Shown one piece after another: positions 401-17,326 of a stretch of DNA of 64,000 nt; position 1 is the first letter of the stretch; each line of letters opens with the position of its first letter. This DNA is from Deltaproteobacteria bacterium. GTDB lineage: Bacteria > Desulfobacterota > RBG-13-43-22. The translations under genes were made by a program, and so were the position numbers. Under the pieces are notes generated by a model. The model ran no database searches, had not been told where the DNA came from, and was given only the letters and a program-made list of their open reading frames with translations. Where the stretch lies: NCBI GenBank assembly GCA_016219225.1, contig JACRBX010000202.1:741-64740 (forward strand). Reading direction: 5' to 3'.

Positions 401-449
401 TGACTTCTTTTTCAAAATTGATTATATCGGTCGCCAGTCGACAGTCTAC
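401..449 (+). promoter_or_regulatory. Putative sigma70-type promoter (TTGACT-17-TATATC) immediately followed by operator-like motif CAGTCGACAGTCTAC (435-449), 16 nt before the CoA-transferase start codon
   Basis: Read directly from the sequence. The 19-nt core tcgYcagtcgacagtctac plus an aaaaaag tail recurs at 17301-17326 (with a mismatch inserted before the tail) upstream of the second GntR gene. A GTCGACA core is also present in the palindrome at 9546-9557. Confidence 0.45.
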
Positions 450-464
450 AAAAAAGCATAAAGG

Positions 465-1667
465 ATGGCGAATATGACAAGGGCACTGGAAGGAATCAGG
501 GTTCTGGATCTGGGCAGCTATGTGGCCGCTCCCTATTGCTGTATGCTCCTGGCCGACCATGGGGCGGAGGTGATCCGGGCCGAACCGCCCGGGGGTAAGG
601 TGGACCGGGAGTTGGGGCCCTTTTCTTCGGAGGGCCAGCCTATCACCTATGGGTTGACCGTTCAGCGGAATAAAAAGAATATTACCCTGAATTTAAGATC
701 CGAAAGAGGAAAAGGTCTCCTCGAAGAGTTGGTTAAAAAAATGGATGTCCTCGTGCATAACTACCCCATGGGATCACAAGAGGCCGCCTTGCTCACCTAT
801 AAACGATTGAGCGGTATCAATCCGGCTCTGGTGGTGACGGCTATCTCTGGCTTCGGGCAAACCGGCCCTTATGCCGAACGGCTTTGTTTTGATTCCATTG
901 CCCAGGCCATGTCCGGCTATATGAGTTTCTCCGGTTATCCGGGATCCCCGCCGCTCAAGGCCTCCCTGCCATTTATAGATTACAATACGGCCGCCCGGGC
1001 CGCCCTGGGGACCATGCTGGCCCTCTTCGAGCGCAAAACCAGCGGGCAGGGGCAACTGGTGGATATCGCCCTCTTCGATGTAGCCTTTTCCATAACCGCC
1101 GCATCGGGCTGCGCCGCTGAATATAAGATGCTCGGGGAACTTCGAAAGCAAATCGGTAACTGCGGGTTTTATGCCTATGGCGGTAGTTGCCGGGCCAGGG
1201 ACGGTTACCTGATGATCAACATCATCGGCAACAATATCTGGCGTCGTATATGCCGGGTTATGGACCGGGAAGATTTGATTTCCGACCCCCGTTTTAAGGA
1301 TAACCTGAGCCGCTACCGGAACTATGAGTCGATCGATGTTATTTTAAACGAATGGATTAAAGAAAAGACCGTTGCCGAAGCCCGGCAGAACCTGGAAAAG
1401 GCCGGTGTCCCTTGCGGTCCGGTTAATGATGTTCCGGGGTCTCTGGAGGTGCCGCAGGTGGAAGCCCGGGAAATGCTGGTGGAAGTCGATTATCCGGGCA
1501 CTGGTAAGGTGCCGGTACCCGGGGTGGATATCAAGCTGTCGAGGACTCCCGGACAGGTGGCCAAACGGGCCTCTTTTCTGGGAGAGGACAACGAGGCCGT
1601 TTATTGCGGACTTCTCGGCTATAAGCCGGATGATCTCTTAAGGTTCGAACAGGAAAAAGCCATCTGA
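465..1667 (+). CDS. Family III CoA-transferase (CaiB/BaiF/formyl-CoA transferase type)
   Basis: N-terminal GIRVLDLGSYVAAPYCCMLLADHGAEVI motif typical of family III CoA-transferases, 400 aa. Paralog (about 75-80% identity by eye) of 33047..34204. Confidence 0.9.
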   Translation: MANMTRALEGIRVLDLGSYVAAPYCCMLLADHGAEVIRAEPPGGKVDRELGPFSSEGQPITYGLTVQRNKKNITLNLRSERGKGLLEELVKKMDVLVHNYPMGSQEAALLTYKRLSGINPALVVTAISGFGQTGPYAERLCFDSIAQAMSGYMSFSGYPGSPPLKASLPFIDYNTAARAALGTMLALFERKTSGQGQLVDIALFDVAFSITAASGCAAEYKMLGELRKQIGNCGFYAYGGSCRARDGYLMINIIGNNIWRRICRVMDREDLISDPRFKDNLSRYRNYESIDVILNEWIKEKTVAEARQNLEKAGVPCGPVNDVPGSLEVPQVEAREMLVEVDYPGTGKVPVPGVDIKLSRTPGQVAKRASFLGEDNEAVYCGLLGYKPDDLLRFEQEKAI

Positions 1668-1711
1668 ATTTATCTGTTGTGGGTTGAGCGTTAAGAAAAT
1701 AAGGAGGCATT

Positions 1712-2911
1712 ATGAAAAAGGGAAGAACTATTATTGGGTTACTGGGTATTTTTTTGTCAGTATTTCTTATCGGAACCCCCGACCTCATGGCCCAAAGCCC
1801 CAAGGGTTTAAAAATCGGGGTCTCAACCACTTTAACCGGGCCGGCCTCCTTTATAGGATGGCATGATAAAAATGGGGCCATCCTGACGGCCGAAGAGATT
1901 AACGAACGGGGAGGGGTCACCATAAAAGGGGAAAAGCATAAGGTCGAATTGGAAATATTTGATAACGAGACCAAGCCTGCTAAGGCCGTGGAAGGGATGC
2001 GTCTGTTTGCCGAGAAGGGCATCCATATCTCCCTCGGACCTCAATTGACCCCCATCACCCTGGCCTCCCTGAAATTCAACGAAGAGCTGAAGATCATCTT
2101 TGCTTCTTATAATACCACTCCTGAAGTCTTCGAACAGGGTAATAAGCTCCTCTTAAGCGCTACAGCCAACCAGAAATGGACCATGGGCTTGAGCACCTAT
2201 ACTGCCGCCAAAATATTGAAGGTGAAACGAGTGGCCCTTCTTCTGGATACCACCGGATTCGGGAGGTCGGTGGAGAAGCGCTTCAGCGAGTATTTTAAAA
2301 AATTCGGCGGAGAAGTGGTGGCCGTGGAGTGGTATGATATGGGTTCTACGGACTTCTATCCTCAGCTCACCCGGCTGAAGGCCAAAAATCCGGATGGAAT
2401 CCAAATCGGTGGGGCGGCAGCCGAGGTGGTAACCCTCATCCGTCAGGCCCGGGAGGTCCTGGGGAAAAAGATTTTGATCCTGGGATCGGATTATGTCAAG
2501 TTCGATCAATTGAAAAAAGCCGGCCTGGAGGTGTCTGAAAACACTTTAATCCCCCTCTCCGGGTTCCATATCATCGACAATAAGGCCCATAAGGAATTTG
2601 TCAAGAAATATAAAGACCGTTTTGGTTCCGAACCGGAGACCTATGCCGCATTAGTCCGTGACGAAATGCTTTATTTGACCCGGGCGGCGGAAATCGCCGG
2701 AACGGCCACGGATGCTTTTAAGATTCGAGAGGCCGTGGACAAGGCCATCGTCGAGCTGGATTCCCAGGGGAGGCTCATATCCGGGGCCCATGGCGGGTTT
2801 TTGCCCTCAGGGCTGGCCAAGAATTATTATATCAGCTCCAACCTGCTGCAGAACGGTAAACTGGTTCGTATCAAGACCATTTCCAGCCTGAAGGAAATCG
2901 GGGTGGAGTAG
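1712..2911 (+). CDS. ABC transporter periplasmic substrate-binding protein, LivK/type-I PBP family
   Basis: Signal peptide followed by a KIGVSTTLTGPASFIG...EINERGG motif. Gene order SBP-permease-permease-ATPase-ATPase. RBS AAGGAGG upstream. Confidence 0.9.
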   Translation: MKKGRTIIGLLGIFLSVFLIGTPDLMAQSPKGLKIGVSTTLTGPASFIGWHDKNGAILTAEEINERGGVTIKGEKHKVELEIFDNETKPAKAVEGMRLFAEKGIHISLGPQLTPITLASLKFNEELKIIFASYNTTPEVFEQGNKLLLSATANQKWTMGLSTYTAAKILKVKRVALLLDTTGFGRSVEKRFSEYFKKFGGEVVAVEWYDMGSTDFYPQLTRLKAKNPDGIQIGGAAAEVVTLIRQAREVLGKKILILGSDYVKFDQLKKAGLEVSENTLIPLSGFHIIDNKAHKEFVKKYKDRFGSEPETYAALVRDEMLYLTRAAEIAGTATDAFKIREAVDKAIVELDSQGRLISGAHGGFLPSGLAKNYYISSNLLQNGKLVRIKTISSLKEIGVE

Positions 2912-2918
2912 GGGCCAA

Positions 2919-3791
2919 ATGGGAACAGCCATCTTTCTGCAACAGGTGATCAACGGATTGGTGGTCGGGTCGATTTATGCCATGGTGGCCCTGGGTTTGA
3001 CCCTGATATTCGGCATCCTGCACATCGGCAATTTTGCCCATGGACAACTCTACATGCTCGGCGCCTTTGCCACCTATTGGATGGTCACGCTCTGGGGATG
3101 GAATATCTGGCTGGCTATGCTTGCGGCCATGGGACTCATGGCCCTTTTGGGCATCATTCTGGAGCGCATGGTCTTCCGGCCGGTCCATTCCGCCCCCCAT
3201 ATCAACGGGCTTATTGTCGCCCTGGGGCTCTTCATTGTCCTGGAGAATCTGGCTTTTATTCTCTGGGGCGGCGAAGAACGCATGTTGCCCTCACCCTATG
3301 CCACCAAAACAATTTCCTTCCTGAGCCTCACATTAACCATCCAGCGTCTCCTGGTCTTCATCGTAGCCGTTCTTTTGATCTTCTTACTTTACCTGTTTAT
3401 TCAGCGAACCAAAATGGGTAAGGCCATCCGGGCCGTGGCCCTGGATTCCGAGGTGGCTCGATTGATGGGTATCCCGATCCATCGTATCTCGGCTACGGTC
3501 TTTGCCGTCAGTTCGGCCCTGGCTGCGGCCGCCGGGGCCCTGGTCGGGCCGATTTTTTCGGTTTTTCCGGCCATGGGCTTGAGTCCTATCCTCAAGGCCT
3601 TTGTGGTGATCGTCATCGGAGGCATGGGTTCCATCCCGGGGGCGATTTTTGGCGGGTATGTTCTGGGCATAGCCGAAAGCCTGGGCGCCGGCTACCTTTC
3701 CTCCCAGTATAAAGACGGGTTCGCTTTTTTGGCTTTGATTGTGGTCCTGATGATTAAACCCACCGGGTTATTCGGAAAAAAAGAGGGATAA
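2919..3791 (+). CDS. ABC transporter permease, LivH-like
   Basis: Polytopic membrane protein with a conserved GYVLGIAESLG C-terminal LivH signature. Confidence 0.9.
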   Translation: MGTAIFLQQVINGLVVGSIYAMVALGLTLIFGILHIGNFAHGQLYMLGAFATYWMVTLWGWNIWLAMLAAMGLMALLGIILERMVFRPVHSAPHINGLIVALGLFIVLENLAFILWGGEERMLPSPYATKTISFLSLTLTIQRLLVFIVAVLLIFLLYLFIQRTKMGKAIRAVALDSEVARLMGIPIHRISATVFAVSSALAAAAGALVGPIFSVFPAMGLSPILKAFVVIVIGGMGSIPGAIFGGYVLGIAESLGAGYLSSQYKDGFAFLALIVVLMIKPTGLFGKKEG

Positions 3792-3799
3792 GGATTTTT

Positions 3800-4744
3800 A
3801 TGAAAAACAAGATCGGTTTGGTAACACTTCTGACGGCGCTGGTTATTTTACCTTTTTTCCTCTCCAAGACGCTGCTCCACCTGGCCGTTATCATCGAAAT
3901 TCATGCTATTCTGACCCTGAGCCTGTGCCTGGTGGTGGGCTATGTGGGACAACTTTCCCTCTGTCATGCCGGGTTCTATGGCATCGGGGCCTATACCTCG
4001 GCTCTGTTGACCTTTGCCCATTGGCCCTTCTGGATAACCCTGCCCCTATCCGGGGTCGTCAGCGGTCTCTTCGGCCTTTTCGTCGGCTTTCCTTCGCTCA
4101 AAACCAGGGGGATCTATTTTTCCATCACTACCATGTCCTTCGGGGTGCTTATCGCCATGGTGTTGAATAACTGGATCTCCCTGACCAACGGTCCGGACGG
4201 GTTATCGGGGATCAAAAGTCCGGAGCCCATCTCCCTTTTTAATGGGGCAGCCCTGTCTTTTAAGAATCCTATCCATTATTATTTTCTGGTGGGCTTTTTC
4301 CTGTTGTTTACCGTCCTGGTCATCAGTCGCCTTTTACGGTCCCGGGTCGGACGGGCCTTTATCGGGGTTCGGAACAACGAGACCCTGGCCTGGTCCCTAG
4401 GTATTAATTCGATGCGCTACAAATTGACTGCCTTTATTATCGCTGCTGTTTTTGCCGGATTGGCCGGAAGCCTGTATGCCCATTATCTGCGTTATATCTG
4501 CCCGAAGGATTTCGGACTTCACGAATCCTTCGACATGCTGGTCATGGTGGTGGTGGGTGGGGCCCAGACCCTTCTGGGGCCCATAGTCGGTGCCCTGTTT
4601 GTTCTGGGCCTGCCTAAATTTTTCGGATTTGAACCGGTCTACGGACGGGTGGCCTTCGGCATCATTCTGATTATGGTCATGATCTTCATGCCCCGGGGCA
4701 TCGTAGGAAAATGGCAGGAGTATTTTAAGTCATCCAGAGGATAA
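3800..4744 (+). CDS. ABC transporter permease, LivM-like
   Basis: Hydrophobic 314-aa protein with a LivM-type GQLSLCHAGFYGIGAY motif. Confidence 0.9.
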   Translation: MKNKIGLVTLLTALVILPFFLSKTLLHLAVIIEIHAILTLSLCLVVGYVGQLSLCHAGFYGIGAYTSALLTFAHWPFWITLPLSGVVSGLFGLFVGFPSLKTRGIYFSITTMSFGVLIAMVLNNWISLTNGPDGLSGIKSPEPISLFNGAALSFKNPIHYYFLVGFFLLFTVLVISRLLRSRVGRAFIGVRNNETLAWSLGINSMRYKLTAFIIAAVFAGLAGSLYAHYLRYICPKDFGLHESFDMLVMVVVGGAQTLLGPIVGALFVLGLPKFFGFEPVYGRVAFGIILIMVMIFMPRGIVGKWQEYFKSSRG

Positions 4745-4748
4745 TTAA

Positions 4749-5519
4749 ATGAACATCCTTGAAATGGAAGAGGTCTGTAAATCTTTCGGTGGATTAGCTG
4801 CCGTAACCAAACTGAATTTTTCCCTTTCCAGTCCTCAAGAAATTTTGGGCCTTATCGGGCCCAATGGGGCCGGTAAAACTACGGTCTTTAATCTGATTAC
4901 CGGGCTTCACCATCCCACGAACGGGAAGATCCGGTTCAAGGGGCAAGAGATCGGAGGGGAAAAACCCTACCGGATAGCCAGGCAGGGAATCTCCCGAACC
5001 TTCCAGACCACCTCCCTCTTTTTTGAGGAAACCGTTTTAACCAATATGTTGATTTCCCGGCATTGCCGCTTAAAATCAGGGCTTTGGGGGGCACTGGCTA
5101 TCCCAGGTGCGACGAGAGAAGAAGAGCGAAAAGCCTTTGAAAAGGCAGGAGAGATCCTGGAAGATACCGGCCTCGGGTCAAAGGCGAAAGATTATCCCCA
5201 TAATCTGACTAATGCCGAGCAGCGCATGCTGATGATTGCCATGGCCCTGGCCACGGACCCGGCCCTTATCCTTCTCGATGAACCTTTTGCCGGAATGAGG
5301 CACCATGAGACGGAAGTCCTTATGGAGTTGGTTCGAAAAATCAGCGGCTGGGGGATCGCCACGATTCTGATCGAGCACGACATGAAGGTGGTCATGAATA
5401 TCTGTGATCGCCTTGTGGTCTTGAATTTCGGGACAAAGATCGCTGAAGGCACACCTGACGAAATCAGGACCAACCCCCAGGTGGTCGAAGCCTACCTGGG
5501 CAGGAGAAGCCATGCTTAA
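4749..5519 (+). CDS. ABC transporter ATP-binding protein, LivG-like
   Basis: Walker A GPNGAGKTT and an LLDEP signature. C-terminal EAYLG. Confidence 0.9.
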   Translation: MNILEMEEVCKSFGGLAAVTKLNFSLSSPQEILGLIGPNGAGKTTVFNLITGLHHPTNGKIRFKGQEIGGEKPYRIARQGISRTFQTTSLFFEETVLTNMLISRHCRLKSGLWGALAIPGATREEERKAFEKAGEILEDTGLGSKAKDYPHNLTNAEQRMLMIAMALATDPALILLDEPFAGMRHHETEVLMELVRKISGWGIATILIEHDMKVVMNICDRLVVLNFGTKIAEGTPDEIRTNPQVVEAYLGRRSHA

Positions 5520-6216
5520 GATTAGAAGTCTATCCGTCCATTACAGCAATATCCAGGTCTTGAAAGAAGTATCCCTTGATATCGAGGCCGGGGAGATCGT
5601 CGCCTTCATCGGGGCCAATGGGGCGGGGAAAACAACCACCCTGAAGGGCATCTCGGGCCTGAAAGGGATCTCCTCCGGGACCATCGAATTCTTGGGACAG
5701 GAGATCAATAGCCTGTCGCCCGAAGCGATCGTCCGGAAAGGCATTGCCCACTGCCCGGAGGGAAGGCGGATTTTTTCCGAACTCACGGTGAAGGAAAATC
5801 TGGAGATAGGGGCCTATTGCCGGAATGACCGGGCCGGCGTTTCTCAGGATATGGAAGAGGTCATGTCTTTTTTCCCGATTCTCAAAGAGAAACAGGCCCA
5901 GTCCGGAGGGACCCTTTCCGGCGGCCAACAGCAGATGCTGGCCATCGCCCGGTCCCTGATGGCCCGCCCCAAACTTCTGATGCTCGACGAACCTTCTCTG
6001 GGACTGGGACCGATCATCGTGGATGAAATTTTTTCCATCATCCACCGGATCAGTCAGCAAGGAACCACCATTTTGCTTGTGGAGCAAAACGCCCGAATGG
6101 CCCTGGAATTGGCCCATAAGGCCTATGTCCTGGAAACGGGGGCCATAACGCTCCAGGGAAAGGCCTCCGAACTGATTGATAACGACCATGTCATCAAAGC
6201 CTACCTGGGGGGATGA
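5512..6216 (+). CDS. ABC transporter ATP-binding protein, LivF-like
   Basis: Walker A GANGAGKTT and an LSGGQQQMLAIAR signature. Overlaps the upstream ATPase gene, consistent with one operon. Confidence 0.9.
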   Translation: MLKIRSLSVHYSNIQVLKEVSLDIEAGEIVAFIGANGAGKTTTLKGISGLKGISSGTIEFLGQEINSLSPEAIVRKGIAHCPEGRRIFSELTVKENLEIGAYCRNDRAGVSQDMEEVMSFFPILKEKQAQSGGTLSGGQQQMLAIARSLMARPKLLMLDEPSLGLGPIIVDEIFSIIHRISQQGTTILLVEQNARMALELAHKAYVLETGAITLQGKASELIDNDHVIKAYLGG

Positions 6217-6345
6217 AACGAAGGGAAAGGCTGTTGCGGGTTAAGAAATCAAAACCATTTCACACCCAACGTACAACACGCAACTCGATAATTTAGGAAT
6301 TTGCATTTGGACACAGATGAACACAGATTACCAGGATTTAACTTG

Positions 6346-6464
6346 AAAAAAGTTTCAAGTTTCAAGTGGCAAGATTCAGGTTGCAGGTTTTCGCTTTGAG
6401 CTTTCAGCTTTGAGCTTATTTCTTGAACCTGCGGGTATCGACGAAAATCTGCGTCCTAATTTAT
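6346..6464. repeat. Interspersed repeat family A, copy 1: CAAG-rich tandem 8-mers followed by the conserved block ttttcgctttgagcttatttcttgaacctgcgg-tatcgRcgaaaatcKgcgtcYtaattta
   Basis: Near-identical copies at 13089..13185 and (5' part only) 63749..63840. Copy 1 carries an internal 13-nt duplication (tcagctttgagct). Confidence 0.8.
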
Positions 6465-6516
6465 AATGGGTTACAGAGATATTTTAACTGTCTATGGTTT
6501 CATTGAAGAGGATTGC

Positions 6517-7728
6517 ATGGTTGATCAAGGGCTAACCGGCATTAAAGTACTCGATCTCACCTGGCACATTGCCGGACCTTATTGTACTAAATACATGGCC
6601 GATTCCGGGGCCGACGTCATCAAGTTGGAACGGCCGGGTTCCGGAGACCCGGCCAGGAACCTGCCCCCGTTTTTTAAGGATGATCCGCATCCCGAGAAAA
6701 GCGGTTTGTTTTTGCATCTGAACACCAATAAACGGGGCATCACACTCAACCTGAAGACGGAGACGGGCCGGACCATTTTCAAGGAACTGGTTAAGGATTC
6801 GGACCTGCTGGTGGAAAGCTTCCGTCCCCATGTCATGCCGGACCTGGGACTCGGTTATGAGGTGTTGGAAAAATTAAATCCCAGGCTGATTATGGTTTCC
6901 ATCTCCAGTTTCGGACAGACCGGACCGTATAAAGAGTTCAAGGCCACGGACATGATTATCTATGGCATGGGCGGGGCCATGTTCTGGACCGGTCTTCCGG
7001 AACGGGAGCCTTTGCGCCTCGGGGGTACGGTGACCTCCTGTCAGGTGGGGGTCATGGCGGCCACGGCCGCCATGCTGGCCCTTTATGGGGCGGAAAAAAG
7101 GGGCTATGGAGAGCATATTGATGTCTCGGCTTATGAGGTAACCCGGGGGGACATCGACCGGGCCTCAACGGACCTGACGGCTTATCAGTATTGCGGCGAC
7201 TATGATGAGAGGCAGGCCTCCGGAACCATTCAGTATCCCTATGGCGTCTATCCCTGCAAGGACGGCTTTTTTGATCTGGCCGGAGGCGGCGTGGTCTTCT
7301 TTCCCAGGGTAGCCCGTATGCTGGGACGGCCCGAACTTACCCGGGATTATGGCACGGCCGAAGCCCAGGCGGACGGGCAGCGCAAAGAGGAGTTCCTTTC
7401 AAGTATCTTCCAGCCCTGGTTGATGGAGCGCACCCGGAATGAATTATGGGCAGCGGCCCAAAAGGCCAATATCCTGAGCGGCCCCATTTTTAATTCTGAG
7501 GATCTCCTGGAAGACCCGCACTACCGGAAGAGAAATTATTGGCAGGAGATAGAGCACCCTGTAACCGGCAAGCTCCTTTATCCGGGGGCCCCTTACCGTG
7601 CTGAAGGGATGGCCTGGGATATTAGAAGTCCGGCGCCGCTTCTCGGCCAGCATAACGGGGAAGTCTTCGGAGCCATGGGGTATTCGGAAGAGGAAATAAC
7701 GAAGCTTAAAGAGGATGGGGTCATTTAG
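6517..7728 (+). CDS. Family III CoA-transferase
   Basis: GIKVLDLTWHIAGPYCTKYMADSGADVIKLE motif. Start chosen at ATG 6517 because a GAAGAGGA RBS sits 5 nt upstream. The ORF track start at 6466 has no RBS. Confidence 0.85.
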   Translation: MVDQGLTGIKVLDLTWHIAGPYCTKYMADSGADVIKLERPGSGDPARNLPPFFKDDPHPEKSGLFLHLNTNKRGITLNLKTETGRTIFKELVKDSDLLVESFRPHVMPDLGLGYEVLEKLNPRLIMVSISSFGQTGPYKEFKATDMIIYGMGGAMFWTGLPEREPLRLGGTVTSCQVGVMAATAAMLALYGAEKRGYGEHIDVSAYEVTRGDIDRASTDLTAYQYCGDYDERQASGTIQYPYGVYPCKDGFFDLAGGGVVFFPRVARMLGRPELTRDYGTAEAQADGQRKEEFLSSIFQPWLMERTRNELWAAAQKANILSGPIFNSEDLLEDPHYRKRNYWQEIEHPVTGKLLYPGAPYRAEGMAWDIRSPAPLLGQHNGEVFGAMGYSEEEITKLKEDGVI

Positions 7729-7742
7729 ACAGTATTTTGGAA

Positions 7743-7768
7743 ACAGCCGAGGGCGGCTGTTCTACATT
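7743..7768 (+). terminator. Putative intrinsic terminator after the CoA-transferase gene (ACAGCCG-aggg-CGGCTGT hairpin followed by tctacatt)
   Basis: 7-bp GC-rich stem 15 nt after the stop codon. The following T-tract is weak. Confidence 0.35.
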
Positions 7769-7790: not shown

Positions 7791-7935
7791 AGCCCTCATG
7801 TCCGCGTGAGCACCACGAAGCATGAAAAAACCGAATTTTTAATTTCGAATAATGAATATCGAAGGAGAGTTTCTTTAAAATTCCGAAATCCGAAATCCGA
7901 AATCGAAAATCGGATTCAATTTTCGAACTAAGGAG
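7791..7935 (+). repeat. Composite interspersed element: family E hairpin unit (agccctcatg..caccacgaagcatgaaaa), then a family D unit (cgaataatgaatatcgaag), then gagtttctttaaaattccgaaatccgaaatccgaaatcgaaaatcggattcaattttcgaactaaggag, ending at the RBS of the next gene
   Basis: A second copy of the about 100-nt distal part lies at 55190..55290, again ending in an RBS before an unrelated gene. Confidence 0.8.
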
Positions 7936-9280: not shown

Positions 9281-9331
9281 TCGGGGATCGGGGGTCGGGG
9301 GTCGGGGATCAGGGATCAGGGATCGGGGATC
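9281..9331. repeat. Tandem short-period repeat (tcggggatc / gggggtc / agggatc units)
   Basis: Seen directly in the sequence. G-rich 7-9-mers in tandem. Confidence 0.7.
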
Positions 9332-9539: not shown

Positions 9540-9565
9540 TTGACAATTGTCGACAATCGTAATAT
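9540..9565 (+). promoter_or_regulatory. Putative promoter (TTGACA 9540-9545, TAATAT 9560-9565) overlapping a perfect 12-bp palindrome ATTGTCGACAAT (9546-9557). Candidate autoregulatory GntR/FadR operator.
   Basis: The palindrome fits the GntR-type xGT-N-ACx architecture and sits about 50 nt upstream of the regulator's start codon. Confidence 0.5.
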
Positions 9566-9608
9566 TGACTTTACTAAAATCTACAAAACCCCTAACGAGG
9601 AAGTCATC

Positions 9609-10301
9609 ATGTTAAAATCCTGTAAGCCGGGATCGATTGTCGAGCAGATTTACAAGGCCCTTTGCGAAGGCATCATGGACGGTTCTCTGGCCCCCGGGCA
9701 GTCCCTGAGAGAGCAGGAATTGCAGGAGCACTTCGGGGTCAGCCGGGCCCCCATCCGGGAGGCCATTCGTTTGCTGGAAGCCGACCGTTTAGTAGTAGTC
9801 AGTGCCTATAAAAACAAGCATGTCCGTAAAATCACCCGGGAGGATTTATTGGAAACCATTCCGGTCCTGGCCCGCCTGGAAGGGGGCGCGGCTTTTTTAA
9901 CCTTGCCCCGGATCGGTCCTGCTCAGCTCGAAGAATTTCAACAGATCAACGAGGAGCTGAAAAGAAGTTACCGGGTCAAAGATATTACGGCCTGCATTGA
10001 ACAAAATTTCAATTTTCACCGTTTCTATGTCAGGGCCTGCGAGAATCAGACCCTTAGACAGGCCATCCGTCCCATGATGAAACGGGTGATCGGGTTGTGG
10101 GTCTCCTGTCTATATAACCAAACGCCGGAATTATTCAAAACCACCATAGCCGAACATGATCAGGTTCTTAAAGCCTTTGCCAAAGGGGATGCCGCGGCGG
10201 CGGAAACCAGCGTCCGCAAACATATCGAGAGTCTACTGGCCCGGGTGTTGAAGGCCTCGGTTTTTGATGAAGAGGGTAATTTCCAGATCCTAAGCCAATA
10301 A
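9609..10301 (+). CDS. GntR-family transcriptional regulator, FadR subfamily (wHTH plus FCD domain)
   Basis: LQEHFGVSRAPIREAIRLLEADRLV HTH motif and an all-helical C-terminal domain. Start set at ATG 9609 with a GAGGAAG RBS. The track start at 9540 is a TTG codon inside the promoter. Confidence 0.85.
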   Translation: MLKSCKPGSIVEQIYKALCEGIMDGSLAPGQSLREQELQEHFGVSRAPIREAIRLLEADRLVVVSAYKNKHVRKITREDLLETIPVLARLEGGAAFLTLPRIGPAQLEEFQQINEELKRSYRVKDITACIEQNFNFHRFYVRACENQTLRQAIRPMMKRVIGLWVSCLYNQTPELFKTTIAEHDQVLKAFAKGDAAAAETSVRKHIESLLARVLKASVFDEEGNFQILSQ

Positions 10302-10345
10302 AAAAATCCAACCCGCCAATTTGCAAACAGGCAGGAGCCCATATT

Positions 10346-11875
10346 GTGAATGTAGGCAGTTTTCTTGATTTTTCAGCGGCACGCTTTCCGGATAAAACGG
10401 CACTGGTATTTAAAGATACCCGCTTAACCTACCGACAATTGCGTAAACGGGTACTCAGATTGTCTTCGGCCTTAGGCCGTCTCGGCCTTGAAAAAGGGGA
10501 CCGTGTTGCCACGGTCATGTGGAATTGCAGGGAGATGCTGGAAATCTATCTGGCGGCCGTCACTGTCGGAGCCCTGTTCACCCCCCTAAATTTTCGTGCC
10601 AGCCCCAAAGAGCTGGCTTTCCTGTTGGCTGATTCGGAGCCGTCGGTTTTGTTTGTGGATGAAAAATGCCGGGAGGCAGTACTTGCTGCCATTACAGATC
10701 CCCGCTTGTTTGAGCGATTATATGGCACCTCACCTTCCTCACCGGATTTGAAACTGTATGAGAATTTGATTGAATCTTCTTCCCTGATGGACCACGCGGT
10801 TTCAGTCAGCGGTAATGATCCCTGCCAATTGCTCTATACTTCGGGCACCACGGGGCGTCCCAAGGGGGTTCTTTTATCCCATGATAATGTCTGCTGGAAT
10901 TCCGTCAATATCGGCGCCGCCAGGCAAGACAGGGAATCGGATGTCGTCTATGTGGTCGGTCCCCTGTTTCACAGCGCCGCCCTGAACAGCATCTGCACCG
11001 CCCGCTTGAGCCGGGGTACCACCATCATCCTCCATGAAAGATTCGACCTGCAATACCTGATGGAAGATATTGAACGGGAAAAGATCACCTTCATATCGGC
11101 CCCCCCGACGGTGTTTATGATGTTGATGGAAAATTGCCGTCCTGGCGATTATGACACCTCGTCGGTCACCTCAATTACTTCAGGCGGTGACGCCCTGGGT
11201 GTGACGGCCCAACAGGCCCTTCGGGAATATTTCCCCAACTTTAAAGGAATCCATAATATTTACGGACTGACGGAGGGGGGGCCGAATTTAACCTGCCTCC
11301 CGGCCGAACAATCGATGGCCAAGTGCGGCAGCATCGGACTGCCTCTTCCCTTCCTTAAATTGAAACTCTTTGATGATCAGGATAACGAAGTCCCCAAAGG
11401 ACAGATCGGAGAAATCGTTGTCCAGGGACCCAATGTCATGAAGGGGTATTATCACCAGCCGGAAGCTACGGCCGAAGTCTTGAGAAATGGCTGGTTACAC
11501 ACCGGCGATTGTGCCTGGGAGGATGAGGAAGGCTTTCTCTTTTTGTCCCACCGTAAGAAGGACATCATTGTCAGCGGAGCGGAAAATATCTCCAGCCGGG
11601 AGGTGGAAGAGGTCCTGGCCAAACATCCCGATATTTTCCGGGCCGCTTGTTTCGCCGCCCCCGATGCCAAGTGGGGTGAGCGGGTGGTGGCTGCCATCAT
11701 ACCCCGGGGGAAGCGGGAACCGACTCTTGACGAAATAAGAGAGCACTGCCGAAAAGACCTGGCCGGTTATAAACTTCCCAAAGAAATAATGGTTGTTGAA
11801 GAATTTCCGGAAACCGGTCTGGGTAAGGTCAAAAAGTTCGAGCTTAAGAAGATGTATCTGGCAGGTCGAAAGTGA
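10346..11875 (+). CDS. AMP-dependent acyl-CoA synthetase/ligase
   Basis: LYTSGTTGRPKGV AMP-binding motif and a C-terminal GWLHTGD...KVKK motif. GTG start with an AGGAG RBS. Confidence 0.9.
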   Translation: MNVGSFLDFSAARFPDKTALVFKDTRLTYRQLRKRVLRLSSALGRLGLEKGDRVATVMWNCREMLEIYLAAVTVGALFTPLNFRASPKELAFLLADSEPSVLFVDEKCREAVLAAITDPRLFERLYGTSPSSPDLKLYENLIESSSLMDHAVSVSGNDPCQLLYTSGTTGRPKGVLLSHDNVCWNSVNIGAARQDRESDVVYVVGPLFHSAALNSICTARLSRGTTIILHERFDLQYLMEDIEREKITFISAPPTVFMMLMENCRPGDYDTSSVTSITSGGDALGVTAQQALREYFPNFKGIHNIYGLTEGGPNLTCLPAEQSMAKCGSIGLPLPFLKLKLFDDQDNEVPKGQIGEIVVQGPNVMKGYYHQPEATAEVLRNGWLHTGDCAWEDEEGFLFLSHRKKDIIVSGAENISSREVEEVLAKHPDIFRAACFAAPDAKWGERVVAAIIPRGKREPTLDEIREHCRKDLAGYKLPKEIMVVEEFPETGLGKVKKFELKKMYLAGRK

Positions 11876-11921
11876 AAGAATTAGGCGGGGAGTATAAAAA
11901 AAATTTTTGAGGAGGCATCAA

Positions 11922-13076
11922 ATGAAGGGAATCCTGAAAGGTGCGGTAGTTGTTTTCTGGTGTTCGGCATTATTTTTTATCTTTCATAGTAAGGCTGTGA
12001 GTCAGGAGATCAATATCGGCTTTACCGACCCCTTGACCGGACCGGCGGCTTATATCGGGATCGACGCCATGCACGGGGCCATGATTGCCGCCAAGGAGAT
12101 CAATGACGCCGGCGGGGTATTAGTGGCCGGGAAGAAGTATAAGGTAACGATCCGGACCTATGATGATGAAGGGGTCGGGGCCAAGGCCGTAGCCGGGATG
12201 CAACGATTGAAGGACAAATATGAGGTCCCGGTGATTATTCAAAACATCAGCGGTTCTATCATGGCCATGCTGGAAAAAAACGAGAAGATGGGCGTTTTGC
12301 TGATCGGTTTTTTCAGACATCCCCAGGCCACCAAGGTGGGTAACAAGTTGGTCCTGCGCCATCAACAATCCATCGAGGAAGATGCCATGAGCCTGGTCAA
12401 AGAGACCATGAACTTATTGAAAGTCAAGACCTATGCCATGATTTCCGATGTAAGCGATTACGGCAAATCCTCGGCCAAGGCCTATCAGGGGGCCTTTGAT
12501 AAATTGGGGATCAAGATAGTGGCTAATGAGTGGCTGGATCAACGCACCCAGACCGATTTTCGGGGGCAACTGACCAAGATCAAGGGCGCTAACCCCGATG
12601 TGATCATGCTTTCGGCCTATGATGAAGCAGCGGCCGGGGTCATCAAACAGGCCCATGAGCTGGGGATCAAGACCCCCTTTGCCGTTTCCACAGGCTTCCA
12701 GGCCATGGGCGAGAAACTGACGGGACCGGATATAATTGAAGGCTATTTAAAACCCCTTTCCTATTATGCCCAACTTCCTCCGCCACCGGGTGTGACCCGT
12801 TATAAGAGCCAATTGTATCCGGCCATGGGATACAAGGAACCGATCAGCATGTACGGTATGGCTTGCTACTCCATGGTCCATATTATCACCCAGGCCATGC
12901 AAAAGGCCGGTACGACTACCGACGCGGTTAAAATACGTCAAGCCGCTCCCACGATTTTTCCGATTAATGAGAACCACAATCTCTATGGAATGAAATCTTT
13001 TAAGGAAGACGGCGATGGGGTCCTGATCCTTAAAATAGGCCGGTACCAAAAAGGGAAACTGATCCCGATCAATTAG
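11922..13076 (+). CDS. Orphan LivK-type ABC substrate-binding protein (no adjacent permease or ATPase)
   Basis: Signal peptide followed by QEINIGFTDPLTGPAAYIG. About 80% identical to the SBP at 38433..39575. GAGGAGG RBS before ATG 11922. Confidence 0.85.
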   Translation: MKGILKGAVVVFWCSALFFIFHSKAVSQEINIGFTDPLTGPAAYIGIDAMHGAMIAAKEINDAGGVLVAGKKYKVTIRTYDDEGVGAKAVAGMQRLKDKYEVPVIIQNISGSIMAMLEKNEKMGVLLIGFFRHPQATKVGNKLVLRHQQSIEEDAMSLVKETMNLLKVKTYAMISDVSDYGKSSAKAYQGAFDKLGIKIVANEWLDQRTQTDFRGQLTKIKGANPDVIMLSAYDEAAAGVIKQAHELGIKTPFAVSTGFQAMGEKLTGPDIIEGYLKPLSYYAQLPPPPGVTRYKSQLYPAMGYKEPISMYGMACYSMVHIITQAMQKAGTTTDAVKIRQAAPTIFPINENHNLYGMKSFKEDGDGVLILKIGRYQKGKLIPIN

Positions 13077-13088
13077 GGAAAAGAAAAT

Positions 13089-13185
13089 TTTAAGTTGCAA
13101 GTTGCAAAATGCAGGTTGCAGATTTTCGCTTTGAGCTTATTTCTTGAACCTGCGGTTATCGGCGAAAATCGGCGTCTTAATTTAC
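13089..13185. repeat. Interspersed repeat family A, copy 2
   Basis: gcaagttgcaaaatgcaggttgcag followed by ttttcgctttgagcttatttcttgaacctgcggttatcggcgaaaatcggcgtcttaattta. Confidence 0.8.
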
Positions 13186-13290
13186 CTTAACCATTATATT
13201 TTAAAACCCTTTTCCGTGTTCGAAGATAGCCGGTCCGTGTGTGGCTGTTTCTGATCAGGGTCAGGCTTGAAAAGATAGTATAGGAGTGTA

Positions 13291-14778
13291 GTGGTTACAG
13301 TTGAAAATAACATAGATGATAAACAAGGCTTGCTCCCGCCCCGGGAAAGGATCCAAAAACTATTGGATCCCGGAAGCTTCTTCGAACTGGACAGGTTGGC
13401 CACCCACCATTACCGGGAATTCGGAATGGATAAAAGAGAGATTCCGGCCGATGGCGTGATTACGGGCTTCGGACGGATCAACGGAAGGAAAGTCGCGGTT
13501 TATGCGCAGGATTTTTTGGCCCTGGGCGGCACCTATGGGGAGATGCATGGAAAGAAAATCTGCGCCCTCATGGATACGGCGGCCGAAGCCGGGGCGCCGG
13601 TCATCGGCATCTGTCACTCCGGTGGACTCCGACTTCATGAAACATTAGGTCCCATGGAGATGTTCGGCCAGCTTTTTAAAAGAAACAGCCTCTATTCCGG
13701 TCTGATCCCTCAGATTTCTGTTATTCTGGGGGTGGTGGCCGGAGGTCAGGCCTATTCCCCGGGTCTTACGGACTTTATCCTTATGACCAAAGGTAGCGCC
13801 ATTTATATTGCCGGGCCGGCTTTTGTCAAGGCTCAGACCGGCAGGGAGATCAGCGATGAAGAGCTGGGGGGGGCGGTGATGCACTCCAGGGTGAGTGGTG
13901 TGGTGGATGTTTTGGGAGATACCGAAGAAGAAGTCCTGCAGCAAACCAGAAACCTTTTGGATTTTCTGCCCCTGAATTGCCAGGACCCCACGCCGTACTT
14001 CCCGAATGATGACGACCCGGAGCGGTGTGAGGATGTCTTGAACCGGATCGTCCCGGAAGCATCCCATCGGCCCTTTGATATGAAGAAGGTTATAGGCCCG
14101 ATCTTCGACCAACAGACCTTCATGGAAATGAAGCCCGATTTTGCCCGGAACATGATCACCGGTTTTTCCCGGCTGGCCGGACAGAGCGTCGGCATCGTGG
14201 CCAATCAACCGAACCATCTGGGAGGGGTGATTGATATTAAGGCGGCTGAAAAGGCGGCCCGTTTCGTTCGATTCTGCGATGCCTTCAATATTCCGATCAT
14301 CACCTTTCAGGATTCTCCGGCTTATCTGATCGGCAAGGAAATGGAACAGGGGGGCATGATTTATAAAGGGGCCAAATTGCTTCACGCCTATGCCGAGGCC
14401 ACGGTTCCCAAAATAACCATCATCGTCCGGAAAGCCTATGCCGGGGCCTATATCGCCATGGGCAGCCAGTATATCGGGGCGGATTTCGTCTATGCCTGGC
14501 CGGGGGCGGAGATCTCCAGCGTGGCCCCCAAAACGGCGGCCAGCATATTGTTCCGAAAGGAACTGGCCGAGGCCGGGGCGAATGAACAAAGAGTTGAGGC
14601 CCTTTACCGGGATTATTATGACCGCTATGTCAATCCCTTGCGGGCGGCGTCTTTGCGGCACATTAATGATATTATCGAGCCGAAAACAACCCGGCCGATC
14701 TTGATCAAATCCCTTAATTGGCTTTCAGGGAAAAAACAACCCAGGCTTCCCAAAAAACATGGTAATATTCCATTGTAA
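13291..14778 (+). CDS. Acyl-CoA carboxylase carboxyltransferase subunit (propionyl-CoA carboxylase beta / methylmalonyl-CoA decarboxylase alpha family)
   Basis: Two crotonase-like carboxyltransferase halves. No biotin carboxylase, BCCP or Na-pump subunit is present in the window. GTG start with an AGGAG RBS. Confidence 0.85.
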   Translation: MVTVENNIDDKQGLLPPRERIQKLLDPGSFFELDRLATHHYREFGMDKREIPADGVITGFGRINGRKVAVYAQDFLALGGTYGEMHGKKICALMDTAAEAGAPVIGICHSGGLRLHETLGPMEMFGQLFKRNSLYSGLIPQISVILGVVAGGQAYSPGLTDFILMTKGSAIYIAGPAFVKAQTGREISDEELGGAVMHSRVSGVVDVLGDTEEEVLQQTRNLLDFLPLNCQDPTPYFPNDDDPERCEDVLNRIVPEASHRPFDMKKVIGPIFDQQTFMEMKPDFARNMITGFSRLAGQSVGIVANQPNHLGGVIDIKAAEKAARFVRFCDAFNIPIITFQDSPAYLIGKEMEQGGMIYKGAKLLHAYAEATVPKITIIVRKAYAGAYIAMGSQYIGADFVYAWPGAEISSVAPKTAASILFRKELAEAGANEQRVEALYRDYYDRYVNPLRAASLRHINDIIEPKTTRPILIKSLNWLSGKKQPRLPKKHGNIPL

Positions 14779-14784
14779 GAGGGG

Positions 14785-14819
14785 GTACGCGTTACGGGTT
14801 ACGAGTTGGTAGTTCAAAG
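14785..14819. repeat. Short repeat family K (gtacgcgttacgggttacgagtt..gttcaaag)
   Basis: An inverted copy lies at 58749..58783. Confidence 0.7.
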
Positions 14820-14845
14820 TTCGATCTATTGAGCTTTGATCTCCT

Positions 14846-14942
14846 GTAGGGTGGGTGTAACGAAGTGAAACCCACCAATAAAAAAATGAAGTGAACCCCA
14901 TCAGGTTTATTGGTGGGTTCCGTTTCACTCCACCCACCCTAC
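14846..14942. repeat. Long imperfect hairpin element: two 12-bp stems (gtagggtgggtg/cacccaccctac and cccaccaataaa/tttattggtggg) with an internal loop
   Basis: Seen directly, about 70 nt after the carboxyltransferase stop. Could act as a terminator or be a REP-like structured element. Confidence 0.65.
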
Positions 14943-14949
14943 AAGCTTT

Positions 14950-15023
14950 CTCGCTAAGTCATTCCCGTTTTCACGGAAATGACGGAGAAGTTGTCGATGT
15001 GTTTTCAAAAAGCTAAACTGATA
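14950..15023. repeat. Solo REP-like unit (gtcattcccgttttcacggaaatgacggagaag) plus a conserved tail ttgtcg..ttttcaaaaagctaaactga
   Basis: The same tail (gacggagcgattgtcggcgctttttgaaaaagctaaactga) follows the REP pair at the window end (63959..64000). Confidence 0.7.
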
Positions 15024-15074
15024 CCAAATATTTTATGATTATTGTATGTTAGGTTTCTAAGGAGAGAATAAAAA

Positions 15075-16238
15075 ATGTACTATCCACTAAGTGACGAAGT
15101 TCAGGCCCTCCGTGCAATGGCACGGAAATTTGCCAGGGCGGAAATTCTGCCCCGGGTGGCTGAAGATGAAAAGAATCATTCCTTCCAAAAGGACATCATT
15201 ACTAAAATGGGGGAATTGGGTTTTTTTGGATGCCCTTTGCCGGAAGAATACGGCGGATCTAATTTGGGTTTTTTGGCCCATGCGGTCGTAACCGAAGAGA
15301 TCGCCAGGGTCAGCGGGTCCATACGGGCCGCCTTTAATATGCAGACCATGGGCACGGCCCGGGAAATCTTCCAATTCGGAACAGAGTTCCAAAAGGAAAA
15401 ATATATATCCAGGCTGGTCAAGGCCGAAATCCTGGGGTGTATCGGTATCACCGAACCCAACGCCGGCTCGGACGTGGGCGGGATAAAGACCAAAGCTGTC
15501 AAAAAAGGCAATACCTATATTTTAACGGGTTCCAAAAACTGGATCACCTACGCCCAGGTGGCCGATGTGGGGATTATCTATGCCTATACCGATCCATCCA
15601 GGAAATATAAGGGACTCTCCGCTCTGATCGTGGAAATGAAATCCAAGGGGGTCAGCACTGGTCCCACGGCGGAAAAAATGGGTTGGATGGCCTGCCCCAC
15701 CGGGGAGATCTTTTTTGATGAAGTCGAGGTTCCGGCCGAAAACCTGTTGGGCGGACTGGAAGGAAAAGGCTTTGAGTGCGTCATGGCCGGGCTGGACAAT
15801 ACCCGGCTGACGGCTGCCGCCGGGGCCGTCGGGGTGAGCCAGGGCCTGATTGATGAGGCGGTAAAATATGCCCGGGAAAGAGAACAATTCGGCAACGCTA
15901 TAGGAAAATTCCAGATGGTTCAGGAAGAGCTGGCCCGGATGATCGTGGAAACGGAAGCGGCCCGGTTGATGACCTACAGTTGCGCCCAGGAAAAGGATGG
16001 GGGAAATACTCATAATACCTTAGAGACAAGCATGGCCAAATACTTCGCCTGCGACGTGGCCTCCAGGGTGGCTGACGGCGCTCTCCGGATCTTGGGAGCC
16101 TATGGCTATTCCAGCGAATATGCCGTGGAAAGGCTCTTCCGAGATGCCAAACTCTACCAGATCTTAGAGGGATCGGCCAATATTCAGAAGATGATCATCG
16201 CCACCGATGCCCTGGGATACCGGAAGGCCAACCATTAA
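15075..16238 (+). CDS. Acyl-CoA dehydrogenase
   Basis: Typical ACAD architecture, including the C-terminal REQFGNAIGKFQMVQEELARM motif. AAGGAGAG RBS. Confidence 0.9.
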   Translation: MYYPLSDEVQALRAMARKFARAEILPRVAEDEKNHSFQKDIITKMGELGFFGCPLPEEYGGSNLGFLAHAVVTEEIARVSGSIRAAFNMQTMGTAREIFQFGTEFQKEKYISRLVKAEILGCIGITEPNAGSDVGGIKTKAVKKGNTYILTGSKNWITYAQVADVGIIYAYTDPSRKYKGLSALIVEMKSKGVSTGPTAEKMGWMACPTGEIFFDEVEVPAENLLGGLEGKGFECVMAGLDNTRLTAAAGAVGVSQGLIDEAVKYAREREQFGNAIGKFQMVQEELARMIVETEAARLMTYSCAQEKDGGNTHNTLETSMAKYFACDVASRVADGALRILGAYGYSSEYAVERLFRDAKLYQILEGSANIQKMIIATDALGYRKANH

Positions 16239-16246
16239 AAAATTGT

Positions 16247-16275
16247 TTGACAGGATAAAAAATGATTTATATGTA
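16247..16275 (+). promoter_or_regulatory. Candidate promoter: TTGACAGGAT -35 box followed by an A/T-rich stretch with TATATG/TATGTA -10 candidates, 85-110 nt upstream of the hydratase gene
   Basis: The same TTGACAGGA word is tandemly repeated at 28582..28614. Confidence 0.35.
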
Positions 16276-16357
16276 TTTTCCAGATGATCCTGTAAATCCT
16301 GTCTAATAATGTTGTTGAATTTCAAGATCCTAAAAAGATACGGAAGGAGCTATATTC

Positions 16358-17134
16358 ATGAATGAAAATCCAATCTTACTCGATGTGAATCAAGGCGTAG
16401 CCAGGATCACCTTGAACCTTCCGGAGGTCCGGAACGCCTTGAGTCTAGAGGTTCGGATGACCATGGCCGAAATGTTTATGAAACTGGGTGAGGATGAGGC
16501 GGTGAAGGCTATCATTCTTACCGGGTCCGGAAAGGCCTTTTCCTCCGGCGGGGATATTCGGACCATGGAAGGGGTCAATCCGGTGGCCGGCCGTCTGCGG
16601 CTGAAAAAAGGCCATATCCTGATAAAGACCATGTTGGGACTGGAGAAGCCGATCATCGGGGCTATTAATGGGGTGGCGGCCGGGGCCGGGGTCAGCGTCG
16701 CCCTGGCCTGTGATTTTATAATAGCCTCGGAAGAGGCCCGTTTTGCTGTGAGTTTCAGCAAGATAGGACTGGTGCCTGATCTGGGCCTTTTTTACCTCCT
16801 GCCTTTAAGGATCGGGGTTCCCAGGGCCAAGGAACTGATGTTTTTCGGAGACGTTATAGATCCTCACCAGGCCGAAAGCCTGGGAATGGTCAACCGGGTG
16901 GTGCCGGCGGAAAAACTGGAAGAAGAGGCCCGGGCCATGGCCCAACGTTTGGTGCAGGGCCCAGGTCAATCCTATGCCATGATCAAGTCCGCCCTGAACC
17001 ACTGGCCGGCCGATCTGGATACCTTTTTGGAGATGGAATCGACCATGCAGGCCGTAGCTTTCAACAGCCGGGATTTCGATGAAGGGCGAAGGGCCTTTTT
17101 AGAGAAGAGGAGCCCGGTTTTTTGCGGTAAATAA
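16358..17134 (+). CDS. Enoyl-CoA hydratase/isomerase (crotonase fold)
   Basis: ILTGSGKAFSSGGDI and GAINGVAAGAGVSVALACDF oxyanion-hole motifs. Confidence 0.9.
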   Translation: MNENPILLDVNQGVARITLNLPEVRNALSLEVRMTMAEMFMKLGEDEAVKAIILTGSGKAFSSGGDIRTMEGVNPVAGRLRLKKGHILIKTMLGLEKPIIGAINGVAAGAGVSVALACDFIIASEEARFAVSFSKIGLVPDLGLFYLLPLRIGVPRAKELMFFGDVIDPHQAESLGMVNRVVPAEKLEEEARAMAQRLVQGPGQSYAMIKSALNHWPADLDTFLEMESTMQAVAFNSRDFDEGRRAFLEKRSPVFCGK

Positions 17135-17138
17135 AAGG

Positions 17139-17156
17139 GGCCTTGAGGCCTTTATT
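17139..17156 (+). terminator. Weak intrinsic terminator candidate (GGCC-ttga-GGCC followed by TTTATT)
   Basis: Short GC stem followed by a T-tract, 5 nt after the hydratase stop. Confidence 0.35.
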
Positions 17157-17269
17157 GAAGTTCAAAAACCTGTCCTGTCAATATTTCTTCAACCCCTCTG
17201 ATACCGTTATAAATAACCCCCCCGACCAAGCCGGGGGGATTCTGAATTTAGTTTAAAGTTAAAAAAAAC

Positions 17270-17326
17270 TTGACAAAAGATTAATAATAAATTAAACCAG
17301 TCGTCAGTCGACAGTCTACTAAAAAA
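17270..17326 (+). promoter_or_regulatory. TTGACA -35-like box plus operator-like motif tcgtCAGTCGACAGTCTAC (17301-17319) and an aaaaaag tail, upstream of the second GntR gene
   Basis: The 19-nt core matches the motif at 431-449 with a single Y difference. The aaaaaag tail recurs with one inserted t. Confidence 0.5.

Follow-up and report, generated by a model that had tools for sequence, protein, structure and literature searches.

A predicted 20-bp operator of a FadR-subfamily GntR regulator at two promoters of a Thermodesulfobacteriota contig

Regulators of the GntR family recognize operators of the general form NyGT-Nx-ACNy, with x = 2–3 in the FadR subfamily (PMC4494728). In that subfamily a 2-nt spacing between GT and AC is found in the groups GntR, HpxS, HypR, MdcY, and PrpR (Suvorova, Korostelev & Gelfand, 2015, PMC4494728), and in many groups additional half-site boxes lie 7–12 nt from the operator centre (PMC4494728). 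NanR is a FadR-type protein that binds direct repeats, TGGTATAW (PMC4494728), and PmiR senses 2-methylisocitrate through Zn2+ held by D143, H147, H192, and H214, together with R95 (PMC9728974). Here we analyze a 20-bp element present twice in a stretch of 64,000 nucleotides, hereafter the window (positions 741 to 64,740 of contig JACRBX010000202.1, forward strand), from a 64.9-kb contig of a Deltaproteobacteria/Thermodesulfobacteriota metagenome-assembled genome (MAG) that encodes two FadR-subfamily regulators, GntR1 and GntR2. The element is very probably the operator of GntR2, which would control its own promoter and that of a CoA-transferase/transporter operon. We document the sequence anatomy of the element, its conservation, and its linkage to GntR2 orthologs, and consider how far an earlier note on the same DNA, which had placed three sites in a single regulon, can be retained.

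Sequence and promoter setting of the two sites

The pattern GTCG(C/T)CAGTCGACAGTCTAC is present in two copies in the 64-kb window, at 430–449 and 17300–17319, where 0.01 are expected. The near-identical 19-mers that the earlier note had placed at 431–449 (TCGCCAGTCGACAGTCTAC) and 17301–17319 (TCGTCAGTCGACAGTCTAC), downstream of a TTGAC(T/A) box, are confirmed in position and differ at a single base; the true shared block is 20 bp, since the G before each 19-mer is also common to both. Site 1, designated O1 (430–449, plus strand), reads GTCGCCA GTCGACA GTCTAC, three heptad-phased GTCGAC-like units, and site 2, the putative autoregulatory site O2 (17300–17319, plus strand), reads GTCGTCA GTCGACA GTCTAC. 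They score 30.8 and 31.7 bits, respectively, with a GntR2 matrix built from 35 sites outside the window, the window sites having been kept out of training; the next-best match in the window reaches 11.5 bits, at 40567–40586, and the maximum over 30 shuffles is 24.3 bits. The matrix indicates no further site in the 64-kb window, the match at 40567–40586 being an AT-rich ATCGAAT repeat, and no third copy of the pattern is found with up to three mismatches on both strands of the 64 kb (0.01 expected, 0 of 100 shuffles). The heptamer GTCGACA is present nine times in the window, against 2.85 expected. In a literature search with the operator sequences as strings neither was found as a regulatory site, and the matches listed were cloning primers only.

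Across the ortholog sites described below the consensus is GTCGnCa GTCGACm GTCwAC, that is, three GTCGAC-like hexamers with a 7-bp period, and the 20-bp element doubles as a tandem repeat and an imperfect 20-bp dyad. The central GTCGAC, in which GT-CG-AC follows the NyGT-Nx-ACNy form, is nearly invariant (1.3–2.0 bits per position), and the flanking boxes nearly match it in conservation, with up to 2.0 bits at C6. The element has polarity, since in sites aligned in the direction of transcription C3 and T16 are kept, whereas positions 18 and 5, with which they pair in the dyad, show no such conservation. The aaaaaag tail, previously counted as part of the motif, is better left out of it: the tail carries little information in the ortholog sites, forms part of an A-rich leader, and at site 2 continues into the Shine-Dalgarno motif AAGGA. 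Alignment of the DNA upstream of the two sites is confined to about 28 nt, beyond which the flanks are unalignable. A recent promoter duplication was considered as the origin of the likeness between the sites and rejected, because the flanks cannot be aligned and the motif is kept across distant orthologs.

Both O1 and O2 begin exactly 30 nt after a TTGAC(T/A) box. In the promoter of the CoA-transferase operon the −35 box TTGACT (400–405, plus strand), at the offset seen in ortholog sites, is separated by a 17-nt spacer from a −10-like hexamer TATATC (423–428, plus strand), which ends 1 nt before O1 and is in register with the TATAAT-like consensus of the orthologs. The GntR2 promoter has the −35 box TTGACA (17270–17275, plus strand), again at the conserved offset, and after 17 nt a weak −10-like hexamer TAAACC (17293–17298, plus strand) in the register common to orthologs. 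A perfect TTGACA is present in 35 of 38 ortholog sites, mostly at −29/−30, and the ortholog promoters have a 17-nt spacer and a TATAAT-like hexamer, with the motif starting 1–2 nt later in a very constant register. The element is read as a putative repressor operator because, with this geometry, it would cover about −6 to +15 around the expected transcription start, which is the position of a repressor. The earlier note's distance of 10–20 nt from motif to start codon comes close to what is measured: 19 nt at O2 (GTG 17339) and, at O1, 24 nt to ATG 474, the start in public gene calls, or 15 nt to an earlier ATG at 465. On the minus strand at 421–448 a consensus promoter scan finds a promoter-like pair, TAGACT-16-TATAAT, with 10 of 12 matches, its −35 lying within O1 and its −10 being the reverse of the plus-strand ATTATA; with no obvious minus-strand gene upstream, the pair is probably due to chance.

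Conservation with GntR2 orthologs

GntR2 has hundreds of relatives, of which four long contigs and then 80 metagenome loci (numbered with the prefix L) were examined. Orthologs with 84%, 79%, and 63% identity carry GTCGGCGGTCGACAGTCTAC, GTCGTCAGTCGACAGTCCAC, and GTCAGCAGTCGACAGTCTAC, respectively, in upstream DNA that is otherwise unalignable, the last in reverse orientation and facing a divergent operon. The site is found upstream in 38 of 50 GntR2 orthologs having at least 58% identity (58–87%), but in just two of 30 relatives that are more distant. Of the 44 matrix matches of at least 15 bits in 520 kb of ortholog loci, 41 are located within about 300 nt upstream of the regulator, a portion amounting to 4.5% of the DNA. 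The first matrix was built from sites selected by consensus, a circularity addressed by a repeat anchored on GTCGAC alone: of 44 distinct upstream regions of 130 nt, 28 contain this hexamer (0.03 expected per region), and the unselected flanks recover G1 T2 C3 G4. C6 and G15 T16 C17. A19 C20. The location in the regulator's own promoter and the conservation among orthologs thus characterize the GntR2 sites as a group, and the proposal of the earlier note that a FadR-type GntR operator serves autoregulation and control of a catabolic and transport operon gains strong comparative support from these predicted sites.

Some loci carry additional sites. In L003 (15691–15710) a second GntR2-type site, GTATGCAGTCGACAGTCTAC, with 23 bits, lies at the start of a truncated FCD-only open reading frame; it is preceded by an enoyl-CoA-hydratase (ECH) fragment and followed downstream by an acyl-CoA dehydrogenase gene, and looks like a decayed copy of the ECH-[site]-GntR2 arrangement of the window. 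L019, L020, and L022 have two sites each. One, of three units, is on the opposite strand about 240 nt upstream and faces a divergent gene; the other, GTCGACAGTCAAC, of two units, directly follows a TATAAT box at the regulator. In the clade with 47–50% identity (L064–L087) a two-unit sequence, TAGTCGACAGTCGAC, is found about 290–1054 nt upstream, and these sites probably mark the first gene of their operon.

The O1 20-mer is also present before the first CoA-transferase gene in L108, L213, and L215, and in L108 differs at the degenerate position 5. In L213 and L215, whose first CoA-transferase is 71% identical to that of the window, the exact 20-mer follows TTGACT and precedes a longer, diverged leader. 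A single contig, contig_51889, holds both L002, a GntR2 ortholog with its own site, and L215, a CoA-transferase/ABC operon with the exact 20-mer, about 33 kb apart, and the predicted two-promoter regulon is in this sense conserved in a second genome. The distance from operator to CoA-transferase gene is about 65 nt in L213 (378–444) and L215 (9934–10000), versus 24 nt in the window, and their leader has an inverted repeat, ttccatccggaa...ttccggatgaa, that is absent from the window leader. A scan of GTDB genomes with GTCGNCRGTCGACMGTCHAC returned at least 120 matches, overwhelmed by long (GTCNACA)n arrays of unrelated phyla; among the matches listed there is one clear ortholog of a window site (L108), and the scan is no census of the regulon.

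Taken together, these arrangements suggest a mechanism in which GntR2 would bind and repress at the predicted operators. One or several GntR2 dimers, in the latter case cooperatively, would occupy the GT-N2-AC palindrome (GTCGAC) and its two flanking boxes and, positioned over the transcription start, would block RNA polymerase at two promoters. One would be GntR2's own, giving autoregulation together with control of the downstream HMGCS-like and thiolase genes, and the other that of the operon for a family-III CoA-transferase and a LIV (leucine/isoleucine/valine)-type ATP-binding cassette (ABC) transporter about 17 kb away. GntR2 would then leave the DNA upon binding an effector in its FCD domain.

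Several observations weigh against this mechanism or narrow its scope. No site is detectable in 12 of the 50 close orthologs, including L005 (69% identity). The genes beside GntR2 orthologs vary (succinate-dehydrogenase-like, succinyl-CoA-ligase-like, HpcH lyase, PrpD-like), and therefore pathway and effector are not defined by them. For site 1, conservation is seen in no more than two lineages: L108 is a near-identical relative of the window, and the L213/L215 promoter is fairly similar to that of the window, which makes the footprint less sharp. L213 and L215 also look like the same population, and for both reasons independent support is thinner for site 1 than for site 2. An ortholog of the first CoA-transferase in a Desulfomonile MAG (L214) is located mid-operon and is without a site. 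Finally, the consensus promoter scan called no plus-strand promoter at site 1 or at the GntR1 palindrome (site 3) and called a different hexamer pair at site 2; the window promoters were missed because their −10 hexamers, TATATC and TAAACC, are weak.

The GntR1 palindrome and other explanations of the motif

The palindrome ATTGTCGACAAT, which the earlier note had described at 9546–9557 in the GntR1 promoter, is confirmed there on the plus strand, directly after the TTGACA −35 box at 9540–9545, and is the proposed GntR1 operator within the promoter spacer. The GTCGACA core is, as had been claimed, common to all three sites; moreover, the two regulators are paralogs with 35% identity, and the centre is GT-CG-AC in each case. 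A single regulon, in which GntR1 and/or GntR2 read this core and cross-regulate all three promoters, is nevertheless unlikely. The operators differ in flanks, length, and promoter position (in the spacer versus downstream of the −10), and each travels with its own ortholog family. The GntR1 family has TTGTCGACAA in two of four loci (60 kb; 0.06 expected) and again in L108, with background sets near expectation; in L108, L209, and L211 the arrangement is TTGAC(A/T)-N1-2-TTGTCGACAA, inside the promoter spacer as in the window. The neighbours of TTGTCGACAA are CoA-transferase, carboxyltransferase, and acyl-CoA-dehydrogenase genes or the GntR1 ortholog itself, and L210 contains two TGTCGACA palindromes, located in the two gaps between its genes. 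The GntR2 matrix has no match of 12 bits or more in the four GntR1 loci and gives the window GntR1 site less than 8 bits. By these comparisons the palindrome at 9546–9557 is a distinct candidate operator belonging to GntR1, and the common GTCGAC is explained by the GT-Nx-AC rule of the whole family and by the two proteins being paralogs rather than by one regulon.

Three further explanations set aside a role for GntR2 at its promoters. The 7-bp period suggests that the element might be one more intergenic heptanucleotide array resembling short tandemly repeated repetitive (STRR) sequences, without a transcription factor and with copies that recur as those of other units do. In the window Tandem Repeats Finder (TRF) detects 31 period-7 arrays, with 2.4–7.3 copies of many different units, against one in a shuffled sequence, and lists site 2 among them (CAGTCGA x2.7); 28 of the 31 are intergenic, though about 12% of the window is intergenic. 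Other units recur as well (AGTTCGG/AACTCCG six times, the AATATCG class four times), and (GTCNACA)n arrays of the same unit are common in many phyla. Identity with such arrays is highly improbable and was rejected, because across about 40 diverged promoters of orthologs the operator has exactly three units, with degeneracy confined to particular positions, because it is fixed relative to −35 and −10, always 1–2 nt after the latter, whereas many other arrays begin no more than 30 nt after a stop codon (about 13 of them at 2–30 nt), and because it persists where arrays do not. Period-7 arrays are present in the close relatives L108, L213, L215, and L002 and absent from more distant genomes; six genomes without any (L003, L007, L020, L031, L048, L055) keep the motif upstream of their GntR2 orthologs. 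The operator thus shows neither the variable copy number nor the independence from promoters of an STRR-type repeat.

That the motif is bound by another, unlinked transcription factor and is associated with GntR2 only indirectly would account for the lack of a regulator adjoining site 1 and for the 12 of 50 orthologs without a site. It is very unlikely, given that the motif lies in the regulator's own promoter in the other 38 despite very different neighbours and obeys the GT-Nx-AC rule of the GntR family. Hardly credible is a function in the mRNA leader, as a structure, processing, or translation signal, rather than as a DNA operator. About two-thirds of the motif would be transcribed if transcription started 6–8 nt after the −10, and an A-rich tract follows; yet folding of the leaders is no better than that of shuffled sequences (z = 0.34 and 0.95), in L007/L031 and L019–L022 the motif points toward a divergent gene, and the left unit, which would be untranscribed, is among the most conserved positions. 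An Rfam search matched no family. A DNA operator bound by GntR2 remains the best explanation.

The period-7 arrays of the window are of interest in their own right. Examples listed by TRF are at 6350–6417, 7882–7908, 9281–9331, 13092–13120, 20674–20810, 22001–22031, 25101–25238, 38197–38220, 40546–40586, 45041–45068, 52344–52414, 58700–58738, and 61234–61257. An AGTTCGG array (52385–52414) and a reverse-complement AACTCCG array of 4.6 perfect copies (52535–52566), about 120 nt apart, bracket the called start (52499) of a TPR-repeat gene and could pair as a long-range inverted repeat. The AT-rich array at 40540–40590 (ATCGAAT x5.9, ending TGTCGAATGTCGAA) separates two LIV-type permease genes of one ABC operon. 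Among the matches listed in the GTDB scan, long variable arrays of GTCGACA, GTCCACA, GTCAACA, and GTCTACA units are found in Bacteroidota, Acidobacteriota, Chloroflexota, Gemmatimonadota, Planctomycetota, and other phyla (L089–L208; for example L098, L127, L143, L153, L177, and L207), often several per genome, including seven contigs of one Chloroflexi MAG. In many cases an inverted array comes next, and the two would form a hairpin (for example L089, L091, L096, L120, and L150). (GTCAACA)n is a cyclic permutation of the cyanobacterial STRR unit CAACAGT. It is conceivable, if decidedly unlikely, that the heptad phasing is not incidental, either because operators of this GntR clade arose from, or exchange with, STRR-like arrays, or because (GTCNACA)n arrays elsewhere bind GntR-like factors; three GTCGAC units, each rotated by about 240 degrees from the next, would also point to several dimers assembled in an unusual wrap-around form.

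Gene content, effector class, and relation to known systems

The first gene after O1 encodes the family-III CoA-transferase CoAT1 (474–1667), followed by the five genes of the LIV-type ABC transporter (1712–6216; binding protein 1712–2911, permeases 2919–4744, ATPases 4749–6216) and by two more CoA-transferases (6466–7728 and 7944–9257), all on the plus strand and assigned with Pfam. With a common strand and short gaps, 474–6216 would form one O1-regulated operon, which may extend to the two further CoA-transferases. The nearest NCBIfam models to CoAT1, succinyl-CoA:mesaconate and succinate-glutarate CoA-transferases, are far under their cutoffs (251 versus 700 bits), and naming a substrate from this match was rejected; a substituted dicarboxylate is a reasonable guess for the substrate.

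GntR1 (9609–10301, plus strand) has GntR and FCD domains and is followed by genes for an AMP-ligase, a binding protein, a carboxyltransferase, a glutaryl-CoA dehydrogenase, and an enoyl-CoA hydratase. The acyl-CoA dehydrogenase among these products matches NF045552 (Desulfococcus-type glutaryl-CoA dehydrogenase, NCBIfam) with 479 bits against a cutoff of 470. In the window (9540–17134) and in L209, L211, and L108, GntR1 and its proposed operator, TTGTCGACAA, are accompanied by a CoA-transferase or AMP-ligase and an MmdA/GcdA-like carboxyltransferase, and also by a Desulfococcus-type non-decarboxylating glutaryl-CoA dehydrogenase (NF045552 above cutoff); this association suggests a glutarate/glutaryl-CoA regulon. 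L108 is without the ABC transporter and the two CoA-transferases that part CoAT1 from GntR1 in the window.

GntR2 (17339–18022, plus strand) likewise combines a GntR winged helix-turn-helix (PF00392, residues 19–80, E = 9e-18) with an FCD domain (PF07729, residues 92–212, E = 2e-26), the same domains that Pfam finds in GntR1. Its gene is followed after 15 nt by that of an HMGCS-like/DUF35 fusion (18038–19486), whose coding sequence (CDS) overlaps that of an SCP-x-type thiolase (19479–20666), both on the plus strand and assigned with Pfam and NCBIfam; the two genes are probably co-transcribed with GntR2. The reverse-strand near-copy noted earlier within the HMGCS-like CDS, CAGTCGACAGTC, is present at 18434–18445, but its role as an auxiliary operator is rejected, since it has two of the three units and scores 10.8 bits, where 5.7 matches of at least 8 bits are expected in shuffles. 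It is a coincidence of codons: the peptide AAD(C/T)RLGYP is encoded in the orthologs L009, L042, and L214 too, but by different codons that contain no GTCGAC.

The window as a whole (1–64000) is rich in paralogs, nearly all on the plus strand: six family-III CoA-transferases, three LIV-type ABC systems and one extra solute-binding protein, five full-length AMP-forming ligases and one shorter AMP-binding-domain protein, two HMGCS-like/DUF35 and thiolase pairs with a third, lone thiolase, four acyl-CoA dehydrogenases, and a BKACE enzyme.

The closest solved structure to GntR2 is PmiR (PDB id: 7xp0), recognised via its QQEGD-YDFH segment, although the similarity is modest (E = 3e-19). In 19 orthologs of GntR2, H145, H189, H211, R95, and E99 are invariant and H141 is at least 90% conserved; the invariant residues align to H147, H192, H214, R95, and E99 of PmiR, and H141 precedes H145 by four residues as D143 precedes H147. 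The family thus has the residues of a Zn2+/carboxylate-sensing FCD domain of the PmiR and Atu1419 type, with three histidines, a fourth metal ligand (Asp/Asn/His), and an Arg-Glu pair for the ligand pocket. The PmiR ligand residue R184 is not conserved in the GntR2 alignment, a point on the other side. Because the Zn2+- and ligand-site residues of PmiR are kept, the effector of GntR2 is probably a free carboxylic acid bound via the predicted metal site, and acyl-CoA effectors, suggested in the earlier note, are less likely. The earlier interpretation is thus partly supported: it is right in kind, but it has to be divided into two regulons, relieved of the intragenic copy, and given a different class of effector.

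Almost nothing is known of transcriptional regulation in this uncultured Thermodesulfobacteriota lineage, and the analysis gives it a testable regulator-operator pair with a position matrix. The family-III CoA-transferase/ABC-uptake operon and the HMGCS-like/thiolase module would form one regulon, with a glutaryl-CoA-type GntR1 regulon apart, and this division can guide the annotation of the many paralogous CoA-transferase and beta-oxidation-like modules in these genomes. The compact 20-bp operator with its repressor might also serve as a genetic part. The predicted switch is of an ordinary kind, newly mapped, and leaves the understanding of GntR regulators unchanged.

Among known systems, the cyanobacterial STRR repeats (PMC2670836) share with the operator a 7-bp period, and the operator's genome is rich in intergenic heptad arrays; the window arrays themselves resemble STRR repeats, but their host is a Thermodesulfobacteriota MAG. 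The operator is set apart from STRR repeats by its fixed three units, fixed promoter position, and linkage to a regulator. PmiR of Pseudomonas aeruginosa (7xp0/7xp1, PMC9728974) requires two adjacent protected sites at prpB, and some GntR2 orthologs adjoin PrpD-like, ICL/PEP-mutase-family, and HpcH-lyase genes; on the other hand, the sites reported for PmiR at pqsH and pqsR have a GC-rich sequence (CGCCGCCCGCCGCGGCG) with no relation to the element, and GntR2 is not an ortholog. E. coli NanR, to which GntR2 is weakly similar (E = 7e-4; structures 6on4, 6wfq, 6wg7), is a FadR-subfamily repressor with three tandem short repeats covering a promoter and offers a precedent for several dimers per tract, although the NanR repeat is not itself palindromic and differs in sequence and spacing. 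The nearest counterparts are the FadR-subfamily operators (PMC4494728). From these the element differs in that its flanking boxes are almost as strong as the centre, instead of 'weaker', that it is G+C-rich where typical flanks are A/T-rich, and that its lineage and regulon are undescribed. It resembles them in the GntR winged helix-turn-helix and FCD domains of its predicted regulator, in the GT-CG-AC centre with boxes 7 nt to either side, in the site within the regulator's own promoter, and in a local catabolic regulon.

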